From the NCBI GenBank assembly GCA_035637655.1, contig DASPWT010000207.1:1347-65346 (forward strand): a DNA stretch of 64,000 nucleotides. The letters run 5' to 3'. The position numbers and the translations under genes are program-made. Source of the stretch: Burkholderiales bacterium (lineage in GTDB: Bacteria > Pseudomonadota > Gammaproteobacteria > Burkholderiales > SG8-39). This document shows, one piece after another, positions 43,766-60,296 of this stretch (within the stretch, counting starts at the first letter, position 1; each line of letters begins with the position of its first letter). Under the pieces are notes generated by a model. That model was given only the letters and a program-made list of their open reading frames with translations, was not told where the DNA came from and did not search any database.

Positions 43766-45016
43766 CTAATCGCCCGTGCGCAGGCGATACAGCCGTGCTA
43801 CGAGCGACTTGAGCGACTCGGCCGCCTCGCCGCCTTGGTTGAGGGCCTCGGTAGGAGCGTGCATCAGTTTGTTGGTAAGGCCGTGCGAAAGCGCCTCGAG
43901 CACTGTCTTGGGATCGTCGCCCCGGGCGAGCATCCGCACCGCACGCTCGACTTCGCGGCAGCGCGCTTCCTCGGCGGATTCGCGCAGCTGGCGGATGAGA
44001 GGCACCATTTCGCGCGTCTTCATCCAGTGCAGGAAGGACCCGACCTGCGACTCGATGATCGCCTCGGCCTGCGCGACGGACGATTGGCGCGCGTCGATGC
44101 CCTCGCGCACCGTCGCGGCGAGGTCGTCGATGGTATAGAGAAATACGTCGTCCATCCCCGCCACCTCGGCTTCGATGTCCCGGGGGACCGCGAGATCCAC
44201 CATGAATACCGGACGGTGGCGGCGAGCGCGGACCGTGCGCTCCATGGTGCCCTTGCCGATGATCGGCAGCGAGCTCGCGGTACAGGAAATGATGATGTCG
44301 AATTCCGGCAAGCGCTCGGGCAGGTCGCGCAGCTCGATCGACTCGGCGTTGAAGCGGCGCGCAAGCGATTCAGCCCGATCGAGCGTGCGGTTCGCCACCG
44401 CCATGCCGCGCGGCTGCTGCGCGGCGAAGTGGGTCGCTGCGAGCTCGATCATCTCGCCTGCGCCGACCAGCAGCACTTTCTGCTCGGCGAGGCTCGGAAA
44501 TATCCGGCCGGCGAGCTTCACTGCGGCAGCCGCCATCGAAACGACGTTGGCGCCGATGCCGGTATTGCTGCGCACTTCTTTCGCCACCGCAAAAGAGCGC
44601 TGGAAAAGCTTGTTGAGAAGCGTCCCGAGCGTACCGGCGGACTCGGCGACGCGAACCGCCTCTTTCATCTGGCCGAGAATCTGGGGCTCGCCGACCACCA
44701 TGGAGTCGAGGCCGGAGGCGACGCGGAACGCGTGCCGAACCGCTTCGCCCTGCGGAAAGGTATAGAGGTAGGGCTTCAGCTCCTGGGGCTGGACGCGGTG
44801 ATAGCCGGCGAGCCACTCGAGTGCAGCCTGCGGTTCGCCCAGAGCGCAGTAAAGCTCGGTGCGATTGCAGGTCGAAAGAATTGCAGCCTCCCTGACTGGC
44901 TCGCGCAGGGTCAGCTCGGCAAGCGCCGATCGAAGGCGCTCGGCGTGAAACGCCACGCGCTCGCGAATCGCGAGCGGAGCGGTCTGGTGGTTCAATCCGA
45001 GCGTGAAAAGTTGCAT
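43766..45016 (-). CDS. hemA: glutamyl-tRNA reductase
   Basis: [19 protein letters not shown] and [10 protein letters not shown] motifs. Confidence 0.95.
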
Positions 45017-47090: not shown

Positions 47091-47123
47091 CTGGAAAAAG
47101 AAAAGGCCCGCCCCGGGCGGGCC
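47091..47123 (-). terminator. rho-independent terminator of the symporter operon
   Basis: On the minus strand, GGCCCGCC-GGG-GGCGGGCC stem-loop followed by TTTTCTTTTT, 30 nt after the symporter stop. Confidence 0.8.
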
Positions 47124-47152
47124 TTTCGCTAGCGGGGCGTGGATCGCGGCGT

Positions 47153-48943
47153 CTAGTCGTGCGCCTGGCCGGCGACCCAGTGCAGCTCGCCCTTGGGCAC
47201 GCGGATCGTGTCCACGAACTCCTGCATTTCCTTCGACGGCGCCGCGGTCATCAGGCTCACGATCCAGGTGACCAGGAAGGCGAGCGGCAGGCCGAACAGG
47301 GCGCTCGAGATGTTGCGGATGCCGAACCACTCGGCCATGCCGAAGTAGCGCGTGCCGACGAGGTAATACGCGCACACCCCGAAGCCGATGACCATGCCGG
47401 CGATGGCGCCCGCCGCCGTGGTGCGTTTCCACCAGATCCCGAGCACCAGCGGCGCGAACAGTCCCGCCGCGGCGAGCGAGAACGCCCAGGCCACCATCTG
47501 GATGATGCCCGCGGGACGGGTTCCGGCGACCGCCGCGGCGACGATGGCGACGACGACGAGCAGCACCCGCGCGACGACCAGGCGGCGCATCGTGGACGCG
47601 TGCGGATCGATCATCTTGTAGTAGATGTCGTGGCTGAGCGCGTTGGCGATCGCGAGTAGCAGCCCATCCGCGGTGGACAGCGCCGCCGCCAGGCCGCCTG
47701 CGGCGACCAGCCCCGAAATCACGTACGGCAGGCCCGCGATCTCCGGCATCGACAGGACGATGATGTCCTGGTTGATGATGAATTCGCTCAGCTGTAGGAT
47801 GCCGTCGCCGTTCGCGTCCTTGATCGTCAGCAGGCCGCCGACCTGGGACCAGTTCTGCACCCACGCCGGAAGCGCGTTGATGTTCTGGCCGATGACGTTG
47901 GTATAGACCTCTAGCTTGGCGAACGCCGCGTAAGCCGGCGCGGTGAAATAGAGCAGGAAGATGAAAAAGATGCTCCAGCCTACCGAAGTGCGTGCGTCCT
48001 TGACGTTCGGCGTCGTGAAGTAGCGCATCAGGATGTGCGGCAGCGACGCGGTGCCGATCATGAGCGTCAGGGTGAGCGCCCAGAAATTGTTGAACTCGAC
48101 CCAGCTGAACTGGCCCTTGGCGTCGACATAGGCTGCGGCGTGCGGCTTGAGGATGCCGAGCTTCTGCTCGAGCTGGCTGATCTGGTCGAGCACCTGCCCG
48201 TAGGCAAGCTCCGGGATCGGATTCCCGAAAAGCTTCGTGGAGAGCCAGACTACCGGAATCAGGTAAGCGATGATCAGAATGATGTATTGCGCGACCTGGG
48301 TCCAGGTCACCGCGCGCATGCCGCCGAGCATCGAGCACACCAGGATGCCGAGGAGGCCGACGAAGATCGCCACCTCGAACGGGATGTCGAGGAAGCGCGA
48401 GGTGATGATGCCGATGCCGAAGCACTGGGCGACGATGTAGGTGAAGGAGGCGCAGAACAGCACGATCACGCCGCAGACGCGCGCGGTGTTGCCCTCGTAG
48501 CGCACGCCGAGGAAGTCGGGCACCGTGAACTGGCCGAACTTGCGCAGATACGGCGCGAGGAGTACGCCGACGAGCACGTAGCCGCCGGTCCAGCCGAGCA
48601 CATAGCCGAGGCCGCCGTAGCCGGCGAGGTACAGGCCGCCGGCCATCGAGATGAACGAGGCGGCGCTCATCCAGTCGGCGCCGGTCGCCATGCCGTTGAA
48701 GAACGGCGGCACCACGCGCCCGGCCACGTAGTACTCGGAAATCTCCGAAGTGCGGGAGATGACCCCGATGTAGGCGTACACGCCGATGGTCAGGAACACG
48801 AAGCAGTAACCGATGACCTTGTTCGGCACCCCCATCTGCTCCAGGATCGCGAGGATGATGACGAAGCCGATGAACCCGCCGGCGTAAACGCCGTAGATCC
48901 TGCCGAGGTTGTCGACGAATCTCTTGCTGGTTTGGTTGGCCAT
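47153..48943 (-). CDS. sodium:solute symporter, large subunit (VC_2705/ActP-like SSS subfamily)
   Basis: 596 aa, about 13-14 TM. EYYVAGR and GMATGADWMSAASFISMAG are typical of the SSS family. Immediately preceded by a DUF4212 gene, the diagnostic pairing of this subfamily. Confidence 0.85.
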   Translation of the reverse strand: MANQTSKRFVDNLGRIYGVYAGGFIGFVIILAILEQMGVPNKVIGYCFVFLTIGVYAYIGVISRTSEISEYYVAGRVVPPFFNGMATGADWMSAASFISMAGGLYLAGYGGLGYVLGWTGGYVLVGVLLAPYLRKFGQFTVPDFLGVRYEGNTARVCGVIVLFCASFTYIVAQCFGIGIITSRFLDIPFEVAIFVGLLGILVCSMLGGMRAVTWTQVAQYIILIIAYLIPVVWLSTKLFGNPIPELAYGQVLDQISQLEQKLGILKPHAAAYVDAKGQFSWVEFNNFWALTLTLMIGTASLPHILMRYFTTPNVKDARTSVGWSIFFIFLLYFTAPAYAAFAKLEVYTNVIGQNINALPAWVQNWSQVGGLLTIKDANGDGILQLSEFIINQDIIVLSMPEIAGLPYVISGLVAAGGLAAALSTADGLLLAIANALSHDIYYKMIDPHASTMRRLVVARVLLVVVAIVAAAVAGTRPAGIIQMVAWAFSLAAAGLFAPLVLGIWWKRTTAAGAIAGMVIGFGVCAYYLVGTRYFGMAEWFGIRNISSALFGLPLAFLVTWIVSLMTAAPSKEMQEFVDTIRVPKGELHWVAGQAHD

Positions 48944-48958: not shown

Positions 48959-49222
48959 TCAGTCTTCGGCGACGCCGAATTCTTCGTCGATCTTGTTCTG
49001 CGCGCTCGCGTTCCAGAAGCACACCACCACGTAGAAGATGAGCGAGCCCTGCGCCGACATGTAGAAGCCGAGCGGGAAGCCGAAGATCTTGATCTGGTTC
49101 AACTGCACGGCGAACGCGGGGATGATGAAGCTGAAGAGCACCCACAGAGCCATGATGATCCACATCAGCCGTGATGTTTTTTTCCAGTACGCATCGCGTT
49201 GCGCGGGCGTCAGTGCGGCCAT
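48959..49222 (-). CDS. DUF4212 putative solute:sodium symporter small subunit
   Basis: 87 aa from ATG 49222, with RBS GGAGGAGGGG upstream. AYWKKTSRLMWIIMALWVLFSF and a second TM helix. Track ORF start 49273 trimmed. Confidence 0.8.
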   Translation of the reverse strand: MAALTPAQRDAYWKKTSRLMWIIMALWVLFSFIIPAFAVQLNQIKIFGFPLGFYMSAQGSLIFYVVVCFWNASAQNKIDEEFGVAED

Positions 49223-49336
49223 GTTCCCCTCCTCCATGTTTTGTCGAGAGCGTTCGGACGAGCTCCCGTACAATCGCTGAGATGCTAGCCGCGCAACCCA
49301 GCCGCATCCATTAGGGAAAACCCTAGGTTTCGACGT

Positions 49337-49966
49337 CTACTCCGATTGCTGCATTGCAAACTGAACCAGTTCAGCGACCGAGGTCACACCCATCTTCTCC
49401 ATCACCTTGGCGCGATGAAATTCGACGGTCTTCATGCTGATGTGAAGTTCGGCTGCGATGATCTTGTTCGGCTTGCCTTCGATGACGCGCTGCAACACCT
49501 CGTGCTCGCGTTCGGTCAGGGTCGCAAGGCGGCCGGCGATGCGCGATTGCCGCGCGCGCTTGTCGCGGAGTTCGGCGTCGCGCTGGAAAGCATTCGCGAT
49601 GATCGCGAGGACTTCGCGATGGCTGAATGGCTTTTGGATGAAATCGACTGCGCCGCCCTTGAGTGCGCTCACCGCGGCCGGCACGTCGCCGTGCCCTGTG
49701 ACGAAGACGATCGGGATCTCGATGTCCCGGCGATTCAGGTACTCCTGCAGCTCTAGGCCGCTCATCCCGGGCAGCTTGAGATCCAGCACGAGACAACCGG
49801 CGCTTCCGTTCCGATAGGACTCGATGAACTCCGCCGCCGTGGCGAAGGTCCTCACGGCGATGCCGTTCGATTCCATGAGCCAGCGCCAAAGCGTGCGAAT
49901 TGACTCGTCGTCGTCGACCACATACGCGATGGGAGGCTGATCGGGATGCATGTCGTTCATCGGCAT
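49337..49966 (-). CDS. FixJ/NarL(LuxR)-family response regulator (CrbR/ErdR-like)
   Basis: Receiver domain (IAYVVDDDESIR, LVLDLKLPGMSG, FIQKPF) plus a GerE HTH (LTEREHEVLQRVIEGKPNKIIAAELHISMKTVEFHR). ATG 49966 preceded by GAGGAGGA. Confidence 0.85.
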   Translation of the reverse strand: MPMNDMHPDQPPIAYVVDDDESIRTLWRWLMESNGIAVRTFATAAEFIESYRNGSAGCLVLDLKLPGMSGLELQEYLNRRDIEIPIVFVTGHGDVPAAVSALKGGAVDFIQKPFSHREVLAIIANAFQRDAELRDKRARQSRIAGRLATLTEREHEVLQRVIEGKPNKIIAAELHISMKTVEFHRAKVMEKMGVTSVAELVQFAMQQSE

Positions 49967-50002
49967 CGGATCCTCCTCGCGACCCAGACGCACGAGCCGC
50001 AC

Positions 50003-50025
50003 CGAGCGGTCAGTGTAGCAAAGCC
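50003..50025 (-). repeat. copy 1 of a 23-nt perfect repeat (promoter/leader core) upstream of the FixJ-like regulator gene
   Basis: CGAGCGGTCAGTGTAGCAAAGCC on the plus strand, identical to 57123..57145. On the minus strand it reads GGCTTTGCTACACTGACCGCTCG and contains an extended -10 (TGC-TACACT). Confidence 0.9.
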
Positions 50026-50147
50026 GCGATGTCGATGCAGTTCGTCTGCGACGAGGCACGAGCGCAGGCTGTCCGGATGGGTCACGGTGCAAACCCTCTA
50101 CGGACGCGGCTACGTTTCGAGCACGCCGAAGCGTAGGCCGGGCGCCC

Positions 50148-51569
50148 CTAAGGCGAGAGCTGGTAGTCGGCCGCGATACGAGCCTGGATAGCGCGCGCCT
50201 GCTTGAGCGCGACCACCAGCACGCGCTGGTCGAATTCGTGCAGCGCGTAAGGATCGATGCGGTTGTCCGGCGCGAGACCCTGCTGCAGGCACTCGGCCTG
50301 GCGGCGCAGGCGCAGTCCCTGGATGTGGTAGTACGCCGTGATCCACGCCTCCGCCTCCCGCTGCGGCACCTTGAGCGCCGGGGCGGCCGCGCGCAGCCGC
50401 CGTTCGGTATTCACTTCGTCGATGCCGTGCGCCAGCGAGAGAATCCGGGCCGCGTCTACAAAGAGACTGGCGCCGTTCAGCTTGACATCTATCCTGCCGT
50501 CATCGCCGGTGATGAGCCGTCCCAGCAACCCGAGTGGCGGGCGGTTCTTTAAGGCGTTCTGCGCCATCTGATGGAGGAACCGCCGATTACGGGGCGCATG
50601 CCGCATCAGCCAGCGACGCAGCTCCCTGGCGAGCGTCAGATCACCCTGCAGCGGCCGCAGATCGAAGAAGATGGCTCCGTGAAGCAGTGCTTCCGGGCTG
50701 CCGGTGTCGATCCAGCGCTCGAATTCGCGTCGCCATTCGTCAAGGCTCAAGACCCATTGCGGATTCCCCGCCATGACATCGCCGGGGCACAGGCGGTAGC
50801 CCGCCCGGTCGAGCGCCCAATTGATGCGCCGCGCGACTGGCAAGAGCGCCGAGCGCACCGAGTCCAAGCTTTCCCCGGGTTCCACGGCGAACATGATGCC
50901 GTTGTCCTGGTCGGTGAACAGCGTCTGCTCGGATCGGCCTTCGCTGCCCATGAGGATCCAGCAGTAGCGCACCGCCACGTCGCGGAACTCCAGCTCGACG
51001 ATGCGCTGGGTGAGGAGGTCATTGAGAGAGGCGATGAAGGCGGTGAGCGCGCCCACGGCCACCCCTTGGGCGAGCATCCTGCGCCCAAGGTCGCTGATGT
51101 CCCGGCCGAACTGCTCGATGGCCGGCAGGTCCTCGGCGCCGTGGATGGCCTCCGACAGGTGCCGGATGCCGGTGCTGTGCAGGCCAAAAAGGTCACGTTC
51201 CGAGATGATGCCGGCGAGCCGGGCGCCGTCGACCAGCACGATGTGACGCACGCCGTGGCGGATCATGGCGAGCGCCGCGCCATAGGCGGTCGCGTCCAGC
51301 GGGAGCGTGACCAGGCGCGACGTCATGACACGCGCAATTGGAGCATCGAGCGCGCCTGGCTCCAGCACCACGCGGTCCACCACGTCGCGCAGGGTGAGGA
51401 TGCCGAGCGGCACGCGGTCCGCGTCGACCACGATCATCGAGCCGATGCCGAGCTCCCGCATCCGGGCGAGCGCCTGCGCCACCTTCTCGTCCGGAGCGCA
51501 GGCGACCGGCGCCCGCCGCAGCAGCTTCGCTAGCGGCGGGTCGATCGCTTCAGTAACGCAGTCGCGCAT
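50148..51569 (-). CDS. CBS-pair / DUF294 putative nucleotidyltransferase (GlnD/GlnE-like NTase fold plus DUF294_C)
   Basis: 473 aa with two CBS repeats at the N-terminus. NTase motif GSEGRSEQTLFTDQDN (GS...DxD) at about aa 208-222. 20-nt overlap with the upstream exonuclease gene. Confidence 0.8.
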   Translation of the reverse strand: MRDCVTEAIDPPLAKLLRRAPVACAPDEKVAQALARMRELGIGSMIVVDADRVPLGILTLRDVVDRVVLEPGALDAPIARVMTSRLVTLPLDATAYGAALAMIRHGVRHIVLVDGARLAGIISERDLFGLHSTGIRHLSEAIHGAEDLPAIEQFGRDISDLGRRMLAQGVAVGALTAFIASLNDLLTQRIVELEFRDVAVRYCWILMGSEGRSEQTLFTDQDNGIMFAVEPGESLDSVRSALLPVARRINWALDRAGYRLCPGDVMAGNPQWVLSLDEWRREFERWIDTGSPEALLHGAIFFDLRPLQGDLTLARELRRWLMRHAPRNRRFLHQMAQNALKNRPPLGLLGRLITGDDGRIDVKLNGASLFVDAARILSLAHGIDEVNTERRLRAAAPALKVPQREAEAWITAYYHIQGLRLRRQAECLQQGLAPDNRIDPYALHEFDQRVLVVALKQARAIQARIAADYQLSP

Positions 51570-53700
51570 AGTAAGTGCGCTCGCACGCGTCGCGCGCCCG
51601 CCCGAGCGTCTCGATTCCCCGCTCGGACAGCAAGGGAATCATCCTCAGGAACACTTCGCCCGTCATGACAGCGTCGCCCACGGCAGTATGCCGGCCCGCC
51701 GTGTTCACCCCGAAGCGGCCGGCAATCGTCTCGAGCTGGTGCGACGCCAGATTCTCATGCAGCAGCGCAGACAGGAGCAGCGTGTCGAGGACCGGATGGG
51801 CAAAGCGCACGCCGAGGGCTTCCTCCTTGAGCCGGAGGAAGCGCATGTCGAACGCCGCGTTGTGGCCGACCAATACGGTGTCCTCGCAGAACTTGTGGAA
51901 CGCCGGCAGCACCCTCTCGATGGTGGGTCGCCCCTGCAGCATCTCGGGTCGGATGCCGTGGATTTTCATCGAAGCCGGTTGCAGGGAGCGGCGCGGGTCG
52001 ACCAGCTGATCGAACACCTCGCCCGAGAGAAGCCGCCCGTTGACGATGCGCACTGCGCCGATGGCGATGATCTCATCGCCCGCGGACGGCTCGAGCCCTG
52101 TCGTCTCGGTGTCGAACACTGTGTAGGTGAGATCCTTGAGCAGCCGGTCGTCGAGCTCGCGCGTCTGGCCCGGCTGGTGAAAGAGGTCGAAGTCATAGTA
52201 CTCGGGCCGGCTCGGGCGCGCGGGCACGCTCGCCGCCGTTTTTTCCGGCTCGGCAAGCGGCAGGAGCAGCCGGAACGAGGACCGGCTCGAGGCCGGGTCG
52301 AACTCGTACCAGGCTTCGCCGTGGTGGCGGTTCAGCACTTCGCGGAAGGTGAGGGCGCTTGATTCGCCGCCGGTCACCAGCGCCGAGCCGTCCCAGGACT
52401 GAACGGTGGACGACGACAGGCGCGCGCCGGTCCAGGTGAGGCTGAATTGCGCATGGCGTCCGGCCGCCCCCACGGCGAAGGCAACTTCTCGGACCTGGCA
52501 CTCGTACTTCAGCCGATGGGCGAGGAAACAGACCGCCTGCACCATGATGAAGCTGTCCGCGTTCACCCACAGGGAAGCATCGATCTCCCCGGTGCTGGTG
52601 GGCAGCCCGACACGCCCGGATATTCGACGCCGCATCACGTCGATCAGGTCGATCGCCCGGATCTGCTCCGGCAACCACTCGCCCATCACATGCTCCGAAT
52701 ACTCGCGCGCGGTGCGCTGAAGCTCTCCCGTCAGGCGATCGGCCTCCTCGCTGATGATGCCCGTGAACTGGCGGCGGCGCGCGACGTCCATTTCCGGATA
52801 GTTCACCAGGTTTTCGACCGCGGCACGCACGCTTGCGAGCGCGGCGCGCGCGTCTTCGGTGTATCGCTGCAGGAGCCGGTCGCGCCGTTCGGCGCGCGTC
52901 ACGGCTTCGCCGATGTCCTCCAAGAGCAGCACGAAACCGGCAAGCTCGCCGCCCGGCGCCGTCCCGTGCCCCGCCACAGGCGCCAGCTGCGCGCGCACCA
53001 GCTGCCCGGTCCGGATCGCCGCCATGAACACCACCACCGGCCAGGTCTCGCCCTGCGCAAAACGTTGGCGAAGCTGCTCGAGCGCATGGGACATCAGGTC
53101 CTGGTCAAGCAGTGTGTAGAGCGAGCGACCCAACCCGATGTAGCTCGAGGCCGGGCCGCCCGCCTCGTCCTCCAATCCGGAAAACACCTGCCGCGCGCGC
53201 TCGTTGTACAGCAGGATTCGGCCTTCCAAGTTACACACGACCACACTTTGCGACAGTTCCGACATGAGCGCGGCAAGCCGGATTCTCTCCTGGTCGAAAT
53301 CGAGCCGCGCTTGGCTGATGCGCGCCTCCACGTCCCTCAGTACTCCTTCGTGCTGCGCGGCGAGCACGTTGATCGCGCCAGACAGCTCGCGCCATTCCGC
53401 CGGACCCTCGGCCTCGATGCGGTAGCTGGGGTTGCCGCCCGCGATCAGGCGGGTGGATTCGGTGAGCCGGCGCGCGGAGGCGACGTAGGTCCGGATGAGC
53501 CAGTTGGCGAGGAAGCCGCTGGCGCCGCAGGCGATGGCGACCAGGAGGAGGAGCGTTGCCTGACTTCCCGACAGCAGGCGCCGGAACGTCTCGCGGTCTT
53601 GCAGGCCGAACGACGCATCCAGCATGAACAGCAGCGCCGCTCCTGCCCCCAGGAGCAGTCCGAAACATACGGCCCAGGCGGCGGCTAGGCGGAGCTTCAT
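51550..53700 (-). CDS. membrane-anchored HAMP/PAS/degenerate histidine-kinase-like protein fused to a DEDDh 3'-5' exonuclease (DnaQ/RNase T family)
   Basis: 716 aa with 2 TM (aa 5-27 and 48-70), a HAMP-like linker and a PAS-like region (VVVCNLEGRILLYNERARQVF). A DHp-like helix carries YTEDARAAL where kinases have SHELRTPL. Exonuclease motifs are FDTETTG, GHNAAFDMRFL and HTAVGD. The ATG abuts the receiver stop (TAGATG). Confidence 0.8.
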   Translation of the reverse strand: MKLRLAAAWAVCFGLLLGAGAALLFMLDASFGLQDRETFRRLLSGSQATLLLLVAIACGASGFLANWLIRTYVASARRLTESTRLIAGGNPSYRIEAEGPAEWRELSGAINVLAAQHEGVLRDVEARISQARLDFDQERIRLAALMSELSQSVVVCNLEGRILLYNERARQVFSGLEDEAGGPASSYIGLGRSLYTLLDQDLMSHALEQLRQRFAQGETWPVVVFMAAIRTGQLVRAQLAPVAGHGTAPGGELAGFVLLLEDIGEAVTRAERRDRLLQRYTEDARAALASVRAAVENLVNYPEMDVARRRQFTGIISEEADRLTGELQRTAREYSEHVMGEWLPEQIRAIDLIDVMRRRISGRVGLPTSTGEIDASLWVNADSFIMVQAVCFLAHRLKYECQVREVAFAVGAAGRHAQFSLTWTGARLSSSTVQSWDGSALVTGGESSALTFREVLNRHHGEAWYEFDPASSRSSFRLLLPLAEPEKTAASVPARPSRPEYYDFDLFHQPGQTRELDDRLLKDLTYTVFDTETTGLEPSAGDEIIAIGAVRIVNGRLLSGEVFDQLVDPRRSLQPASMKIHGIRPEMLQGRPTIERVLPAFHKFCEDTVLVGHNAAFDMRFLRLKEEALGVRFAHPVLDTLLLSALLHENLASHQLETIAGRFGVNTAGRHTAVGDAVMTGEVFLRMIPLLSERGIETLGRARDACERTYYARLRY

Positions 53701-54069
53701 CTACGGACCCAGCAGCCGCTTGACTGCCTCAAGCAGCTCCCGGGTGGCGAACGGCTTGGTGATATAGGCGTCTGCGCCCAGCGCGAGGCCCTTGGCGACC
53801 TCGGTTTCGCGGCCCTTCGCGGTCAGCATGATGATCTTCACCGGCTTGAGCTCAGGCGATTCGCGGATCACCTGGCAGACTTCGAAGCCGTTCTTGAGCG
53901 GAAGCATGATGTCCAGCAGCAGCAGGTGTGGCCGGAATTCCCGCGCCACGCTCAGCGCGTCGTCGCCGTTGGCCACTGTCCGGATCTCGTATCCGCTCTG
54001 CTCCATGAGAAACTCCAGCGAGACAGCGATGTTGGGCTCGTCGTCCGCAATCAGCACCCGCTGTTTCAC
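53701..54069 (-). CDS. stand-alone CheY-like receiver protein
   Basis: [19 protein letters not shown] and ITKPF motifs. GTG 54069 with a GAGGG RBS, 1 nt after the kinase stop. Track start 54111 trimmed. Confidence 0.85.
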
Positions 54070-54070
54070 G

Positions 54071-56842
54071 TCACGCCCTCGCGGCAGCCGCGGCCGCTCT
54101 CGAATCCCCAACGGCGCTGATGGGCAAGGTGAAGGAGAACGATGCGCCTTCCCCGGGCCCGCTCTCCACCCAAAGGCGCCCTCCGAAATGGCCGATGATT
54201 TCGCGGCAGATAGGCAAGCCCAAGCCGGTGCCCTGCGGTTTCTCGGTCAGCGTATCGCCCACCTGCCGGAACTTCTCGAAGATGATCTGCTGGTCCTCGG
54301 GGCCGATGCCGATGCCGTTATCTATTACATCGACCCGCAACGCTTCCGCTTCACGGCTCAGCCGGATTTCCACCCGTCCATGCTCCTTGTCGCAGAACTT
54401 CGCCGCGTTTGACAGCAAGTTAAGCATGACTTGCACGAGCCGATCGCGATCCGCGAACAGCGTGGGAACCTCGGGCTCGAGTTCGGCCATGACCCGGATG
54501 CCGCGCTCCTTGAACAGCTGGCTGGTGGCCGTGATCGACTCCTCAATGATCTCCTTGAGTTCCACTTCCGTGTTGTGCCATTCGGCGCTACCCGATTCGA
54601 TCTTGGCGAGGTCGAGCACCTGGTTGATGAGGCGCGTGAGCCGCTCGGACTCCTTCACGATGATGCTGAGGAATTTGGTGCGCTCGGCCTCGTCGAGGCG
54701 GGGATTGTCATTGAGGATCTCCGAGAACGCGCGGATCGAAGTGAGCGGCGTGCGCAGCTCGTGCGTCACGGTGGAGATGAAGTCGTCTTTGAGGCGGTCG
54801 AGCTCCTGCAGCCGCTGGTTGGCACCGCGCAGCTCGTTGGTTGCCGCCTCGAGTTCCTGTGATTTCTGCTCCAGCTGCCGGCTATAAGCGAGAACCTGCG
54901 AGGCCTCGTCGATGATGCTCATTACCTCGTCGATGTCCAGGGGCTCCTCCTCGACGACCGAGGCGACCATGACGCGGGCCGAAGCGCTGCCGATGGCGCC
55001 GGCGAGGAGCGATTCTGCGTGGTGCACCAGATTGGCGTCGGCCGAGAGCGCCTCGGCCGATCGCACACCGCGGCTGTGGGCGTAGGCGGCAAACGCCTCG
55101 TGCGCGCGCTCCGGACCGAGAAAACGGCCCACCAGCAGCAGCAAGTCGTTGACCGAGGCGCTGCCGCGCCAGAAGCGCGAACCGGGAGACGCCAGCGGGT
55201 GCTTGAGAGCATCGACGAATACGGTGGCTTGTCCGTGCTCGGCCGCATTGGGCCCCTTGATCAGCGATACGCCGACGTAGCAGCCGATGTTGACGAGCAT
55301 GCTCCAGAAGAGGCAATGTGTGATGTCGTCCAACCCCTGGAGTCCGAGCAGGTGCTGCGGCTTGAGGAGATCAGTGCCGAACAGCCCGTGAGAAAGAAAG
55401 GTGATCGGCAGCCAGCCCGACTTGGCGAAAGAGGGCAGCAGCAGCGTATAAGTCCAGACCAAGAAGCCCGCTGCCAGGCCGCAGAACGCGGCAGTGCGCG
55501 TACCCCCCTTCCAGAAGATTCCGCCGATGATGGCTGGGGCAAACTGTGCCACCGCCGAGAACGAGATCAGCCCAATGGAAACCAGCGCATAGGCTTCCCC
55601 GGCCAGATAGAAGTAGAGATAGCCCAGCACCAGGATCAGCACGATCGCCCCGCGGCGGATGCCGAGCAGCAGCCCGGAGAGATCGCGCCGCTCAGTCAGG
55701 CGAAGCGCCTTCGAGCGCAGCAGCACCGGCATCACCAGGTCGTTGCACACCATGGTGGAGAGCGCGATGGTTTCGACGATCACCATGCCGGTCGCAGCCG
55801 AAAGTCCGCCGATGAAGGCGAACAGCGCGAGCCACGGCTGCCGTTCCGCGATCGGCAGCGTCAGCACGAAGGTGTCGGCATCCACTGTGCCGTCCGGAAA
55901 GTGCAGTAGCCCGCCGAAAGTGATCGGCAGCACGAATACATTGATCGCAAGCAAGTAGAGCGGGAACAGCCAGATCGCCTTGGTCAGGTGACGCTCGTCG
56001 ACGTTCTCCACGACCGTCACCTGGAACTGGCGCGGCAGGAACATGATGGCGGCCATCGAGAGAAAGGTGAGCGAGGCCCAGGTCGCGTAGCCGCCGCTCT
56101 CGCTTCCCAGGGTCAGCAGGGCGCTCGACCGGGGCGTCTGGCGGGCGCGGTCGAAGATGTCGCCGAAACCGTCGTAGAGCCAGAACGTGACGAACAGCCC
56201 CACCGCGATGAAGGCGAGAAGCTTCACCAGCGACTCGAACGCAATGGCCGCGACCAGGCCTTCGTGGCGCTCGGTGGCGTCGAGGTGGCGGGTGCCGAAC
56301 AGGATAGTGAAAGCCGCGAGCAACATCGCGATGTAGAACGTGTTGTCGCCCAGGAACAGGGGCGCGCCCTGGTTTTCGGGCGTTGCCAACGCGGGATACT
56401 GGAGGACGATCAGGAAGGTGCCGGATATCGCCTTCAGTTGCAGCGCGATGTAGGGGATGATCCCGACCACGGCAATGATCGTCACCAGGCCGCCGAGCAT
56501 TTGGCTCTTGCCGTAGCGCGAGGCGATAAAGTCGGCGATGGAGGTAATGCGGTTGTGCTTGCTGATGCGGATGATCTTCAGCATCACGTACCACCACAGC
56601 GCCGCCATCAGCGTTGGCCCGAGGTAGATCGGCAGGAAGCCGATGCCGCTCGTCGCCGCGCGCCCTACGCTGCCGTAAAAAGTCCAGGACGTGCAGTAGA
56701 CCGCGAGCGACAGTGCATAGATGTAGGGGTTGGCGATGATGCTGCGGCCCGCGTCGGCGCGCTTGTCGCCGTAATAGGCGATCGCGAACAGCAGCCCCAC
56801 GTAGGCGAAGGAGGCGATGACGATGACGGGGGCGGTGAGCAT
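54071..56842 (-). CDS. sensor histidine kinase with N-terminal sodium:solute-symporter (SLC5/SSF) domain (CbrA/CrbS/MxtR-like), no receiver domain
   Basis: 923 aa. About 500 aa of SSF-type TM helices, a STAC-like linker, a coiled coil, the H-box [14 protein letters not shown] and HATPase boxes ([21 protein letters not shown]). The protein ends right after the ATPase domain. Confidence 0.9.
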
Positions 56843-57280: not shown

Positions 57281-58960
<1,680 letters not shown>

Positions 58961-59257
58961 TTACTTCGCGACGACGCCCATGATGTCGTCTTCGCGCATC
59001 ACCAGATACTCGGTGCCTTCGACTTTCACGGCTTGCCCGGAGTACTTTCCGAACAGGATGCGGTCACCGACCTTGACGTCCAGCGGACGCACCTTGCCGT
59101 CCTCGAGGATCTTGCCCTTGCCGATCGCAACGACCTCGCCTTGATCGGGTTTTTCTCCGGCGGTGTCGGGAATCACGATCCCGCCTGCAGACTTGCTTTC
59201 GGCATCGAGGCGCTTCACTACGACGCGGTCGTGCAAGGGACGAATCTTGGTCATCAT
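58961..59257 (-). CDS. groES: co-chaperonin GroES
   Basis: [12 protein letters not shown] and [12 protein letters not shown] motifs. Confidence 0.98.
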
Positions 59258-59645: not shown

Positions 59646-60296
59646 ATGAAACACCCCGCTCTGCGTTGCACGGCCGCAGCACTGCTGCTGTCGGGCGTGT
59701 GCTCCACTTATGCCGCGGACCCTTATTGGTACACGGGCCTGGGAGTCGGCTACTCCCGGGTTCAGTTCTATCCGGCGGATTTCAAAGCCGGAGTAGCCGG
59801 TGTCGACGAAAGCAAGAAGGAGTTTGATGCGGGTTTCAAGGGATTTCTCGGTTACCAGATCAACAGGAACTGGGCTGCCGAGGTGAGCTATGTTTCCGTC
59901 GGCAAATTTCAGTATAAATACACGGACACGACTACAAATGTCACTCAGCTAGACGACTACAAAGTAACGGGATGGGGGTTCTCGGCTTTGCCAACGGTTC
60001 CCTTGACCAACAACTTCTCCTTTTATGGCCGATTGGGAGCCTTCTTTTCCCAGGCAAGAATAACGTTCTACAACGCGGGTTTTGTTGTTGGGAATAACGG
60101 CGTCGGCGTTCTCGGTGACCAAACCAGCCTGCTGTCCGGCTTCGGGGTCCAATATTTTTTCGGCGGCGAGGACGGCTTCCGCATCGAGTACGAAAATTTC
60201 GGCAGGGTCGGCAGCGCATGCACCCCCAGCGTTGTAAGCTGTTCCGGCCGGGCCAATGCGAAGATGATCTCGGCCAGCGGTATTTTCAAATTCTGA
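59646..60296 (+). CDS. small outer-membrane beta-barrel protein (OmpA-beta-barrel/OmpW-like porin family)
   Basis: Signal peptide ending YAADP, alternating aromatic beta-strand pattern and a terminal F (GIFKF). AT-richer than the flanks. Confidence 0.75.
   Translation: MKHPALRCTAAALLLSGVCSTYAADPYWYTGLGVGYSRVQFYPADFKAGVAGVDESKKEFDAGFKGFLGYQINRNWAAEVSYVSVGKFQYKYTDTTTNVTQLDDYKVTGWGFSALPTVPLTNNFSFYGRLGAFFSQARITFYNAGFVVGNNGVGVLGDQTSLLSGFGVQYFFGGEDGFRIEYENFGRVGSACTPSVVSCSGRANAKMISASGIFKF

Follow-up and report, generated by a model that had tools for sequence, protein, structure and literature searches.

Why should a 3′-5′ exonuclease be carried at the end of a membrane protein that is built like a sensor histidine kinase and lacks the residues with which such a kinase works? 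The question is raised by a gene at positions 51550..53700 of a 64,000-nt stretch of genome from a Burkholderiales bacterium (GenBank assembly GCA_035637655.1, contig DASPWT010000207.1, positions 1,347 to 65,346), referred to here as the window and used as the frame for all coordinates. The gene and the features described with it lie on the minus strand. It starts with ATG and encodes a protein of 716 amino acids (aa) in which two transmembrane (TM) helices, a HAMP-like linker, a PAS domain, a degenerate dimerization and histidine phosphotransfer (DHp) hairpin, a degenerate catalytic and ATP-binding (CA) domain, a linker and a DEDDh exonuclease follow one another; we refer to it as the pseudo-kinase–nuclease. 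A first-pass annotation, made from the sequence alone, had proposed this open reading frame (ORF) and this order of domains, and all of its parts (the ORF, the TM pair, HAMP, PAS, the DHp-like and CA-like regions, and the exonuclease) were found to be present. Homologues numbered more than 1,270 among 5.8 billion proteins searched, and nearly all of the best 120 were 710-730 aa long and covered the whole query, so the ORF represents a real gene. An AlphaFold model of the full-length protein, computed from a 112-sequence alignment, had a mean predicted local distance difference test score (pLDDT) of 77. Pfam and NCBIfam scans of the protein assigned no family to aa 270-510.

A histidine-kinase fold in the unannotated center

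In the full-length model, helices at aa 264-299 and 306-338 form a hairpin that is followed by an alpha/beta sandwich at aa 345-482. The hairpin (aa 264-338; 52687..52911) resembles a DHp domain without its phospho-acceptor His, and the sandwich (52255..52668) a Bergerat-fold CA domain in which the ATP lid is shortened and the N box, G1 and G2 are missing. When a family profile of aa 260-490, built from 100 diverse members, was compared by hhalign with the DHp-CA region of the SSF-type kinase encoded two genes upstream (65 orthologues), the two aligned at 99.7% probability with an E-value of 3e-25 over 227 columns, at an identity of ~22%. The same similarity was picked up by BLASTP alone in many loci. 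A full-length family profile run against the sequences of the PDB matched VicK (4i5s; E-value 3.4e-13, profile positions 254-494) and also HK853, the latter over the DHp domain with an E-value of about 1e-4, and a profile of the core by itself retrieved kinases only, apart from noise. Profiles were required for this result, as a PDB search with the single sequence of aa 260-510 returned noise only (avidin, L3).

Structure comparison gave the same picture. The best Foldseek matches of the full model in the PDB were whole sensor kinases (WalK, YF1/FixL chimeras, VicK and ThkA; E-values 1e-19 to 1e-11). A separate AlphaFold model of the core (aa 262-486), in which the CA-like part is arranged in beta-alpha-beta layers, reached a pLDDT of 84.8, and its best 50 Foldseek matches were all DHp-CA cores aligned over the whole query, among them the atypical cores of DivL and RetS. 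Taken together, these four independent lines (profile-profile alignment, profile search of the PDB, and two AlphaFold models compared by Foldseek) indicate that aa 262-486 has, by prediction, the fold of a histidine-kinase core, with both the DHp hairpin and the Bergerat-fold CA domain of the HisKA type. The DHp/CA-like folds suspected on first reading were thus recovered by profile alignment as well as by structure prediction. The likeness to the neighboring kinase is confined to DHp-CA, and the PAS and linker regions upstream of it share no similarity. Since the similarity stops at DHp and since VicK and HK853 also match, we do not claim a specific duplication of, or pairing with, the neighboring kinase.

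Family-wide loss of the kinase catalytic residues

Two sets of homologues were aligned to assess the catalytic positions, a close set of 115 and a distant set of 100 with 28-46% identity over the core. By hhalign, TEDARAAL of the pseudo-kinase–nuclease falls on THELRTPL of the neighboring kinase, with Glu282 (codon 52855..52857) over the phospho-acceptor His. The replacement of His by Glu and the absence of any other His from that helix had both been read from the sequence beforehand, and aa 264-299 do contain no His at all. Nor is the replacement peculiar to this protein. The acceptor position is held by Glu in 70 and by Gln in 42 of the close homologues (112 of the 115 in all), and by Glu in 61 of the distant ones, where His was found only twice; both of these members still have Trp at G1. 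There is no His at or beside the acceptor position in any member of the close set or in 94 of the 100 distant members, and no conserved His was found anywhere in the hairpin (aa 264-338) in either set. R285, three residues past the acceptor position and a hallmark of HisKA, is retained.

The nucleotide-binding motifs, which had likewise been reported missing, are replaced in alignment with the working neighbor. The N-box Asn corresponds to His395 here, a position that varies among the homologues, with Asn in 5 of the 100 distant members. At G1, DNGIGI of the neighbor is met by WTGARL, so that Asp becomes Trp423, and Trp occupies this position in 95 of the 100 distant members. At G2, GTGLGL of the neighbor is met by GGESSA, and GGE(S/A)SP is found across the family. 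According to hhalign the ATP lid of this protein is ~11 residues shorter than that of the neighboring kinase. The CA-like domain nevertheless keeps conserved residues of its own, namely W378, D382, S383, W423 and H459. The H box, N box, G1 and G2 of a functional HisKA kinase are all wanting, and the combination of a kinase fold with a conserved loss of catalytic residues is that of a DivL-like pseudo-kinase. With the loss of the acceptor His, the N-box Asn, G1 and G2 conserved across ~215 homologues, the kinase core is predicted to be dead.

An intact exonuclease behind a conserved linker

The C-terminal domain (aa 525-690; 51631..52128) was identified as a DEDDh 3′-5′ exonuclease. It matches Pfam RNase_T over aa 528-684 (E-value 4.5e-37; 128.5 bits against a cutoff of 24), and the three motifs that had been pointed out from the sequence (DTE, NAAFD and H-x4-D) were all located, as D530-T-E532, N614-A-A-F-D618 and H671-x4-D676, so that motifs Exo I, II and III are present along with the family match that defines the DEDDh superfamily. 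D530, E532, D618, H671 and D676 are invariant in the 115 close homologues and 96-98% conserved in the 100 distant ones. Judged from its sequence, the nuclease active site is intact, that is, 'live'. A pseudo-kinase fused to a DEDDh nuclease, as first proposed, is therefore upheld by the kinase fold, the family-wide catalytic loss and the conserved nuclease residues together.

The closest solved relative is the exonuclease domain of Thermotoga maritima PolC (PDB 2p1j; E-value 1.7e-34, ~40% identity). In Foldseek comparisons the C-terminus matched PolC and epsilon exonucleases, including Escherichia coli epsilon with a template-modeling score of 0.85. RNase T was a marginal match, and oligoribonuclease was absent among the matches listed for the domain. 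The suggestion that the substrate might be nanoRNA or a small signaling nucleotide thus drew no support from the nearest solved relatives, which are proofreading domains. In the DEDDh superfamily, the substrate cannot be read off from sequence similarity. The domain also scores well under the NCBIfam equivalog cutoffs for DnaQ (TIGR01406, 107.6 against 222.7; PRK05711, 107.2 against 196) and PolC (150.6 against 873). The proofreading domains of PolC and epsilon (2p1j, 1j53, 9qpc) share the DEDDh fold and all catalytic residues with the domain described here, which differs in having no polymerase, a membrane anchor, a signaling chassis and another genomic context.

Between the CA-like domain and the nuclease lies the motif SRPEYYDFDLF (aa 497-507; 52180..52212), which has a low pLDDT and is predicted to be disordered. 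It is 86-96% conserved, even in members that are ~30% identical to the query, and was found in 79 ORFs of the surveyed loci. A disordered segment conserved to this degree looks like a candidate docking peptide. Its second half, YDFDLF, resembles the beta-clamp-binding pentapeptide, QL[SD]LF.

Membrane anchor, HAMP linker and PAS domain

The N-terminus has the features of a transmembrane sensor. TM helix 1 (aa 5-27; 53620..53688) has a hydropathy above 2.0 and TM helix 2 (aa 47-69; 53494..53562) was likewise identified by hydropathy; both are helices in the AlphaFold model, and they leave a loop of 19 aa (aa 28-46) between them, in agreement with the ~20 periplasmic residues estimated earlier. 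The HAMP-like linker and PAS-like segment of that estimate also held up. The linker, with its signaling helix (aa 67-120; 53341..53502), is a weak Pfam HAMP match in this protein (aa 67-115; E-value 0.015) and a significant one in homologues, such as P0023 (32.7 bits against a cutoff of 25), many of which have precomputed PF00672 matches. The PAS domain (aa 149-262; 52915..53256) shows PAS topology in the AlphaFold model, and its PAS_4 match over aa 149-266 is just past the Pfam threshold (23.8 bits against 23.1). Several of its residues are near-invariant across the family (C156, 98%; Y165; N166, 100%; G189, 100%; R192, 98%; H205, 89%), which suggests a pocket for a ligand or cofactor. In heme-PAS sensors, the helix on which H205 is located supplies the heme ligand. 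P0023, which is 65% identical to the protein, additionally carries a precomputed match to PF26769.

Size and distribution of the family

A HMMER scan of 1.84 billion cluster representatives with the non-nuclease part of the protein (aa 121-510) returned at least 1,285 clusters at 50% identity with an E-value of 0.001 or below, 313 of them at 1e-30 or below. About two-thirds of the best 150 clusters were represented by proteins of 680-780 aa with the match in the same position, and shorter ones may be fragments. In a scan of one genome per species, at least 590 species had a relative, mainly Betaproteobacteria. Most belong to the Rhodocyclales (Thauera, Azoarcus, Denitromonas, Zoogloea, Dechloromonas, Azonexus and Accumulibacter), and further hosts were found in the Burkholderiales (Hydrogenophaga, Noviherbaspirillum, Rhodoferax) and the Competibacteraceae. 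Databases list members as 'DNA polymerase III subunit epsilon' or 'exonuclease domain-containing protein', and the former is a misnomer. Two loci hold two copies of the gene each, L013 (105-2102 and 8025-10046) and L058 (632-2581 and 8172-10142); in L013, each copy has DUF294 and DUF4212/SSS genes of its own.

A conserved operon with a kinase, a receiver and a nucleotidyltransferase

The pseudo-kinase–nuclease gene is embedded in a compact block on one strand. Farthest upstream is a CrbS-like gene (54071..56842) for an SSF-like membrane domain joined to an intact HisKA/HATPase_c kinase (Pfam HisKA and HATPase_c) without a fused receiver. Its N-terminal 560 aa (55163-56842) have no Pfam SSF match, align with the SSS/VC_2705 symporter family by hhalign (95% probability), and match PDB chain 10ed_A, a 606-aa 'histidine kinase', with an E-value of 1e-67. 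A stand-alone receiver (REC) gene follows (53701..54111; Response_reg, E-value 8.8e-28). Its product retains the acidic pocket, the acceptor Asp and the Thr and Lys residues, and its stop codon abuts the start codon of the pseudo-kinase–nuclease gene (TAGATG). The true REC start is uncertain: the listed TTG overlaps the kinase gene by 41 nt, whereas from an alternative GTG at 54069, which lies 1 nt past the end of the kinase gene (stop codon at 54071-54073), REC would be 122 aa long and the junction tighter.

Downstream, a gene for a CBS-CBS-DUF294 nucleotidyltransferase with DUF294_C (50148..51569; Pfam, with a GS...DQD motif in the sequence) overlaps the end of the pseudo-kinase–nuclease gene by 20 nt. 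It is followed by a CrbR-like response regulator of the FixJ/LuxR type (49337..50092; Response_reg and GerE; NCBIfam FixJ at 213 bits, under the cutoff), a DUF4212 symporter small subunit (48959..49273; PF13937, TIGR03647) and a VC_2705-family sodium/solute symporter (47153..48943; TIGR03648, 741.8 bits against a cutoff of 320.75). A strong terminator-like hairpin with a 12-bp stem and a T run (47101..47127) closes the block. Ahead of its receiver domain, the listed regulator ORF is extended by 57 residues, and translation more likely begins at an internal ATG near 49966 (MPMNDMH...).

To what extent this arrangement is conserved was surveyed in 80 related loci, 73 of which had enough upstream sequence to be informative. 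The order kinase, REC, pseudo-kinase–nuclease on one strand was seen in 61-62 of the 73. REC lies directly upstream in 62, with an estimated gap to the gene of 0-157 nt, mostly below 25 nt. Of all 80 loci, 56 contain DUF294 and 37 a VC_2705-type symporter. Loci without an adjacent kinase or REC came mainly from Accumulibacter and Competibacter. The gene is thus inherited as a unit with the SSF-like kinase and the single-domain REC, and DUF294 and the VC_2705/DUF4212 symporter usually come along. An exonuclease gene that adjoins DUF294 and an SSF-type kinase or SSS transporter is also what characterizes a CrbS/R-linked module.

In Dechloromonas/Azonexus-type loci (L044, 10153-13873; L045, L046, L052, L053, L057, L062, L063, L070), a second nucleotidyltransferase/nuclease pair was observed after the long nuclease gene. 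It consists of a CBS-less DUF294 gene (355 aa), a cNMP-CBS-DUF294 gene (651 aa) and a 222-aa DEDDh-like ORF, in that order. The last has degenerate motifs (DLN for DxE) and no Pfam match, and in L044 the short exonuclease is ~26% identical to the long one.

Relation to described systems

Literature searches found no paper describing the pseudo-kinase–nuclease architecture, and searches for the function of DUF294 found no characterization, most 'DUF294' text matches being to DUF2946. The first-pass statement that no characterized example of the architecture is known therefore stands for the literature searched, but a studied relative does exist in the DUF294 and RNase_T genes under CrbS/R control in Pseudomonas (PMC9927547). 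In P. putida (PP_0354/PP_0353) and P. aeruginosa (PA3233/PA3232), a cNMP-CBS-DUF294 gene is followed by an RNase_T exonuclease gene (PMC9927547, PMC9765439, PMC5715377). Both genes are among those with the strongest dependence on MxtR/ErdR (CrbS/CrbR), and in P. putida no target depends on this system more strongly than the pair (PMC9927547; bioRxiv 10.64898/2026.09.07.749794). As in the operon described here, a DEDDh exonuclease gene is paired with a CBS-DUF294 gene and linked to an SSF-type kinase, a LuxR/FixJ regulator and monocarboxylate transporters. By the published descriptions, however, the Pseudomonas pair has cNMP/CBS sensory domains on the nucleotidyltransferase and an exonuclease with an RNase_T match only, whereas the exonuclease here carries a 500-aa membrane pseudo-kinase sensor. 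The DUF4212 protein and its symporter were identified by fitness profiling as a lactate and D-alanine transporter, and a nearby gene for a COG2905/'RNase T domain' protein was cofit with DUF4212/SSS, which led the authors to guess that expression of the symporter requires it (bioRxiv 10.1101/072470). DUF294_C has been classed alongside the C-terminal domains of the protein nucleotidyltransferases GlnD and GlnE (PMC3710099).

Two described proteins come close to the chassis. DivL of Caulobacter crescentus (PDB 4q20), a pseudokinase, uses its DHp domain to read DivK~P (PMC4211667). It shares with the pseudo-kinase–nuclease the PAS-DHp-CA layout, a replaced acceptor His (Tyr in DivL, Glu or Gln here) and a single-domain receiver as partner, and it serves as the model for 'reverse' signaling from a receiver to a pseudokinase. 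DivL exerts its effect on another kinase, CckA, and lacks an output domain with enzymatic activity, whereas here a nuclease is fused C-terminally. Its CA domain is also more normal, while here N, G1 and G2 are all gone, and receiver binding in our case is a prediction. RetS of P. aeruginosa (6dk7/6dk8), which does not phosphorylate and blocks GacS through DHp contacts, likewise puts a kinase fold to use in protein-protein regulation. RetS differs in that it keeps its His and has receiver domains and no nuclease, and a heteromer of the RetS kind would be hypothetical here.

Possible control of the nuclease by the receiver

As a working model we favor, tentatively and at just short of an even chance, a membrane-anchored and signal-gated DEDDh nuclease whose dead kinase core would read the state of the receiver, by analogy with DivL. 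The protein is probably dimeric, with a TM-HAMP-PAS-DHp-CA chassis that would no longer be able to bind ATP or be phosphorylated. In such a scheme, the SSF-like kinase would sense or transport a monocarboxylate and phosphorylate the small REC, which would dock on the dead DHp helix as DivK~P does on DivL, and this docking, along with the protein's own PAS/HAMP input, would switch the C-terminal nuclease. The nuclease and the DUF294 nucleotidyltransferase may act as a remove/add pair on a common substrate, and the outcome would be control over the expression or activity of the neighboring organic-acid symporter. Docking of REC on the pseudo-DHp, or pairing with the SSF kinase, is consistent with the synteny from which it was proposed.

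A more specific version, which we regard as doubtful, is a writer/eraser under two-component control, in which DUF294 would add a nucleotide and the DEDDh enzyme would remove it, the eraser being gated by REC~P on the dead kinase core. The target in that version may be a protein hydroxyl, as for GlnD and GlnE, or an RNA 3′ end.

Several observations weigh against gating by the receiver or fail to help it. An analysis of covariation (mutual information with average product correction, 64 kinase/REC/nuclease triplets) found no interface-located signal between REC and the pseudo-DHp; the positive control, REC against the DHp of the real kinase, gave none either. With both REC alpha1 and the H-box helix of the kinase invariant, the analysis was without power. 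No natural fusion of REC to the pseudo-kinase was found in the 80 loci, where long stop-to-stop ORFs turned out to be upstream extensions in another frame or to be separated by stops. Adjacency is not a strict requirement either: in 12 loci (Accumulibacter, Competibacter) no kinase is encoded next to the gene, and in at least 8 of these REC is missing from its side as well. As read from the alignment, the DHp alpha1 specificity positions (His+7, +11 and +12) match the real kinase at one of three. In Pseudomonas, loss of the short-form DUF294/exonuclease genes impairs growth on pyruvate and propionate mildly at most (PMC9927547). Finally, the nearest relatives of the nuclease act in DNA proofreading, and this kinship says little about its function here.

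The lack of an adjacent kinase and REC in Accumulibacter and Competibacter loci is among the observations that would suit a sensor working without partners, in which the TM, HAMP and PAS regions sense a ligand or the state of the membrane, the dead DHp-CA serves as a dimeric transmission rod, and the linkage to kinase and REC reflects co-transcription. The near-invariant PAS residues (C156, N166, G189, R192, H205) suggest a ligand pocket for such a sensor, and a HAMP domain and signaling helix are in place. What makes this rather unlikely in our judgment is that the tight, orientation-fixed placement of REC ahead of the gene in ~85% of informative loci goes beyond what co-regulation usually needs, and that a coiled coil would be enough for transmission, yet a whole CA-like domain has been kept with W378, D382, S383, W423 and H459. 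If the core is retained for contacts with other proteins, its partner might instead be the SSF-like kinase: as in RetS, the dead DHp would heteromerize with the kinase DHp and tune its output, the nuclease being a passenger or recruited to the membrane complex. A profile of the pseudo-core scored 46-77 bits on full-length orthologues of the neighboring SSF kinase, nothing on four other kinases from the loci and 16 bits on a fifth; BLASTP alone detects the likeness, the two proteins are both membrane-bound and only the REC gene separates their coding sequences, and RetS cores are among the Foldseek matches. However, the control kinases numbered only five, the likeness is low and ends at DHp-CA, with an unrelated PAS and linker, and VicK (E-value 3e-13) and the HK853 DHp (about 1e-4) match as well, so that it may reflect a shared kinase subfamily. 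We consider a RetS-like modulator improbable.

Two further readings fare worse. That the protein is an ordinary DNA exonuclease, a DnaQ paralogue of repair or proofreading that merely has a membrane anchor, would fit its closest solved relatives among the PolC and epsilon proofreading domains, and also the YDFDLF linker with its likeness to the beta-clamp pentapeptide. Its scores far below the DnaQ (TIGR01406) and PolC equivalog cutoffs, a TM-HAMP-PAS-kinase chassis that no replisome protein is known to have, and conserved neighbors that belong to signaling and transport and not to replication or repair make this very unlikely. Phosphoryl transfer, whether by a working kinase or by a phosphotransferase between REC and the FixJ-type regulator, has hardly any probability left. 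The DHp-CA fold is that of Spo0B and ChpT, the gene sits between those for REC and the response regulator, and two distant members have a His at the acceptor position. Nonetheless, the hairpin has no conserved His at all, which rules out both phosphotransferase and kinase activity, and the candidates were rejected on that ground; the N-box Asn, the G1 Asp and G2 are gone as well, and the ATP lid is shortened.

Significance for organic-acid signaling

CrbS/R (MxtR/ErdR)-type systems govern the use of acetate, propionate and pyruvate in Pseudomonas and Vibrio, and their top targets, DUF294 and an RNase_T-like exonuclease, are unexplained. A nuclease joined to a signaling chassis right behind a kinase and REC offers a testable hypothesis for how such a module is controlled, and the soluble fragment of the pseudo-kinase–nuclease together with REC would be tractable in vitro. 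The protein combines two known kinds, the pseudo-histidine kinases and the CrbS/R-linked DUF294/exonuclease module, in a family that is widespread and mis-annotated. With at least 590 species representatives and hundreds of clusters at 50% identity, this is a large addition to the few pseudo-histidine kinases listed from bacteria. The family is common in wastewater and denitrifying Betaproteobacteria (Accumulibacter, Dechloromonas, Thauera, Zoogloea), where organic-acid uptake is central. Were the writer/eraser version true, the protein would be the first nuclease-type output of a two-component system reached by reverse signaling from receiver to pseudokinase, and could be the first DEDDh de-nucleotidylase, with organic-acid uptake controlled post-transcriptionally or post-translationally.

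Surroundings of the operon

A role of the operon in anti-phage defense was considered and rejected, as PADLOC returned generic matches to the DEDDh domain only and its partners had no match at all. The G+C content is even across the window (~0.58-0.67) and gives no hint that the operon sits on a mobile island. From their translations, the flanking ORFs at 43766-45016 (minus strand), 57281-59257 (minus strand) and 59646-60296 (plus strand) look like housekeeping genes and include a HemA-like glutamyl-tRNA reductase, GroEL/GroES and an OmpA-like beta-barrel ORF.

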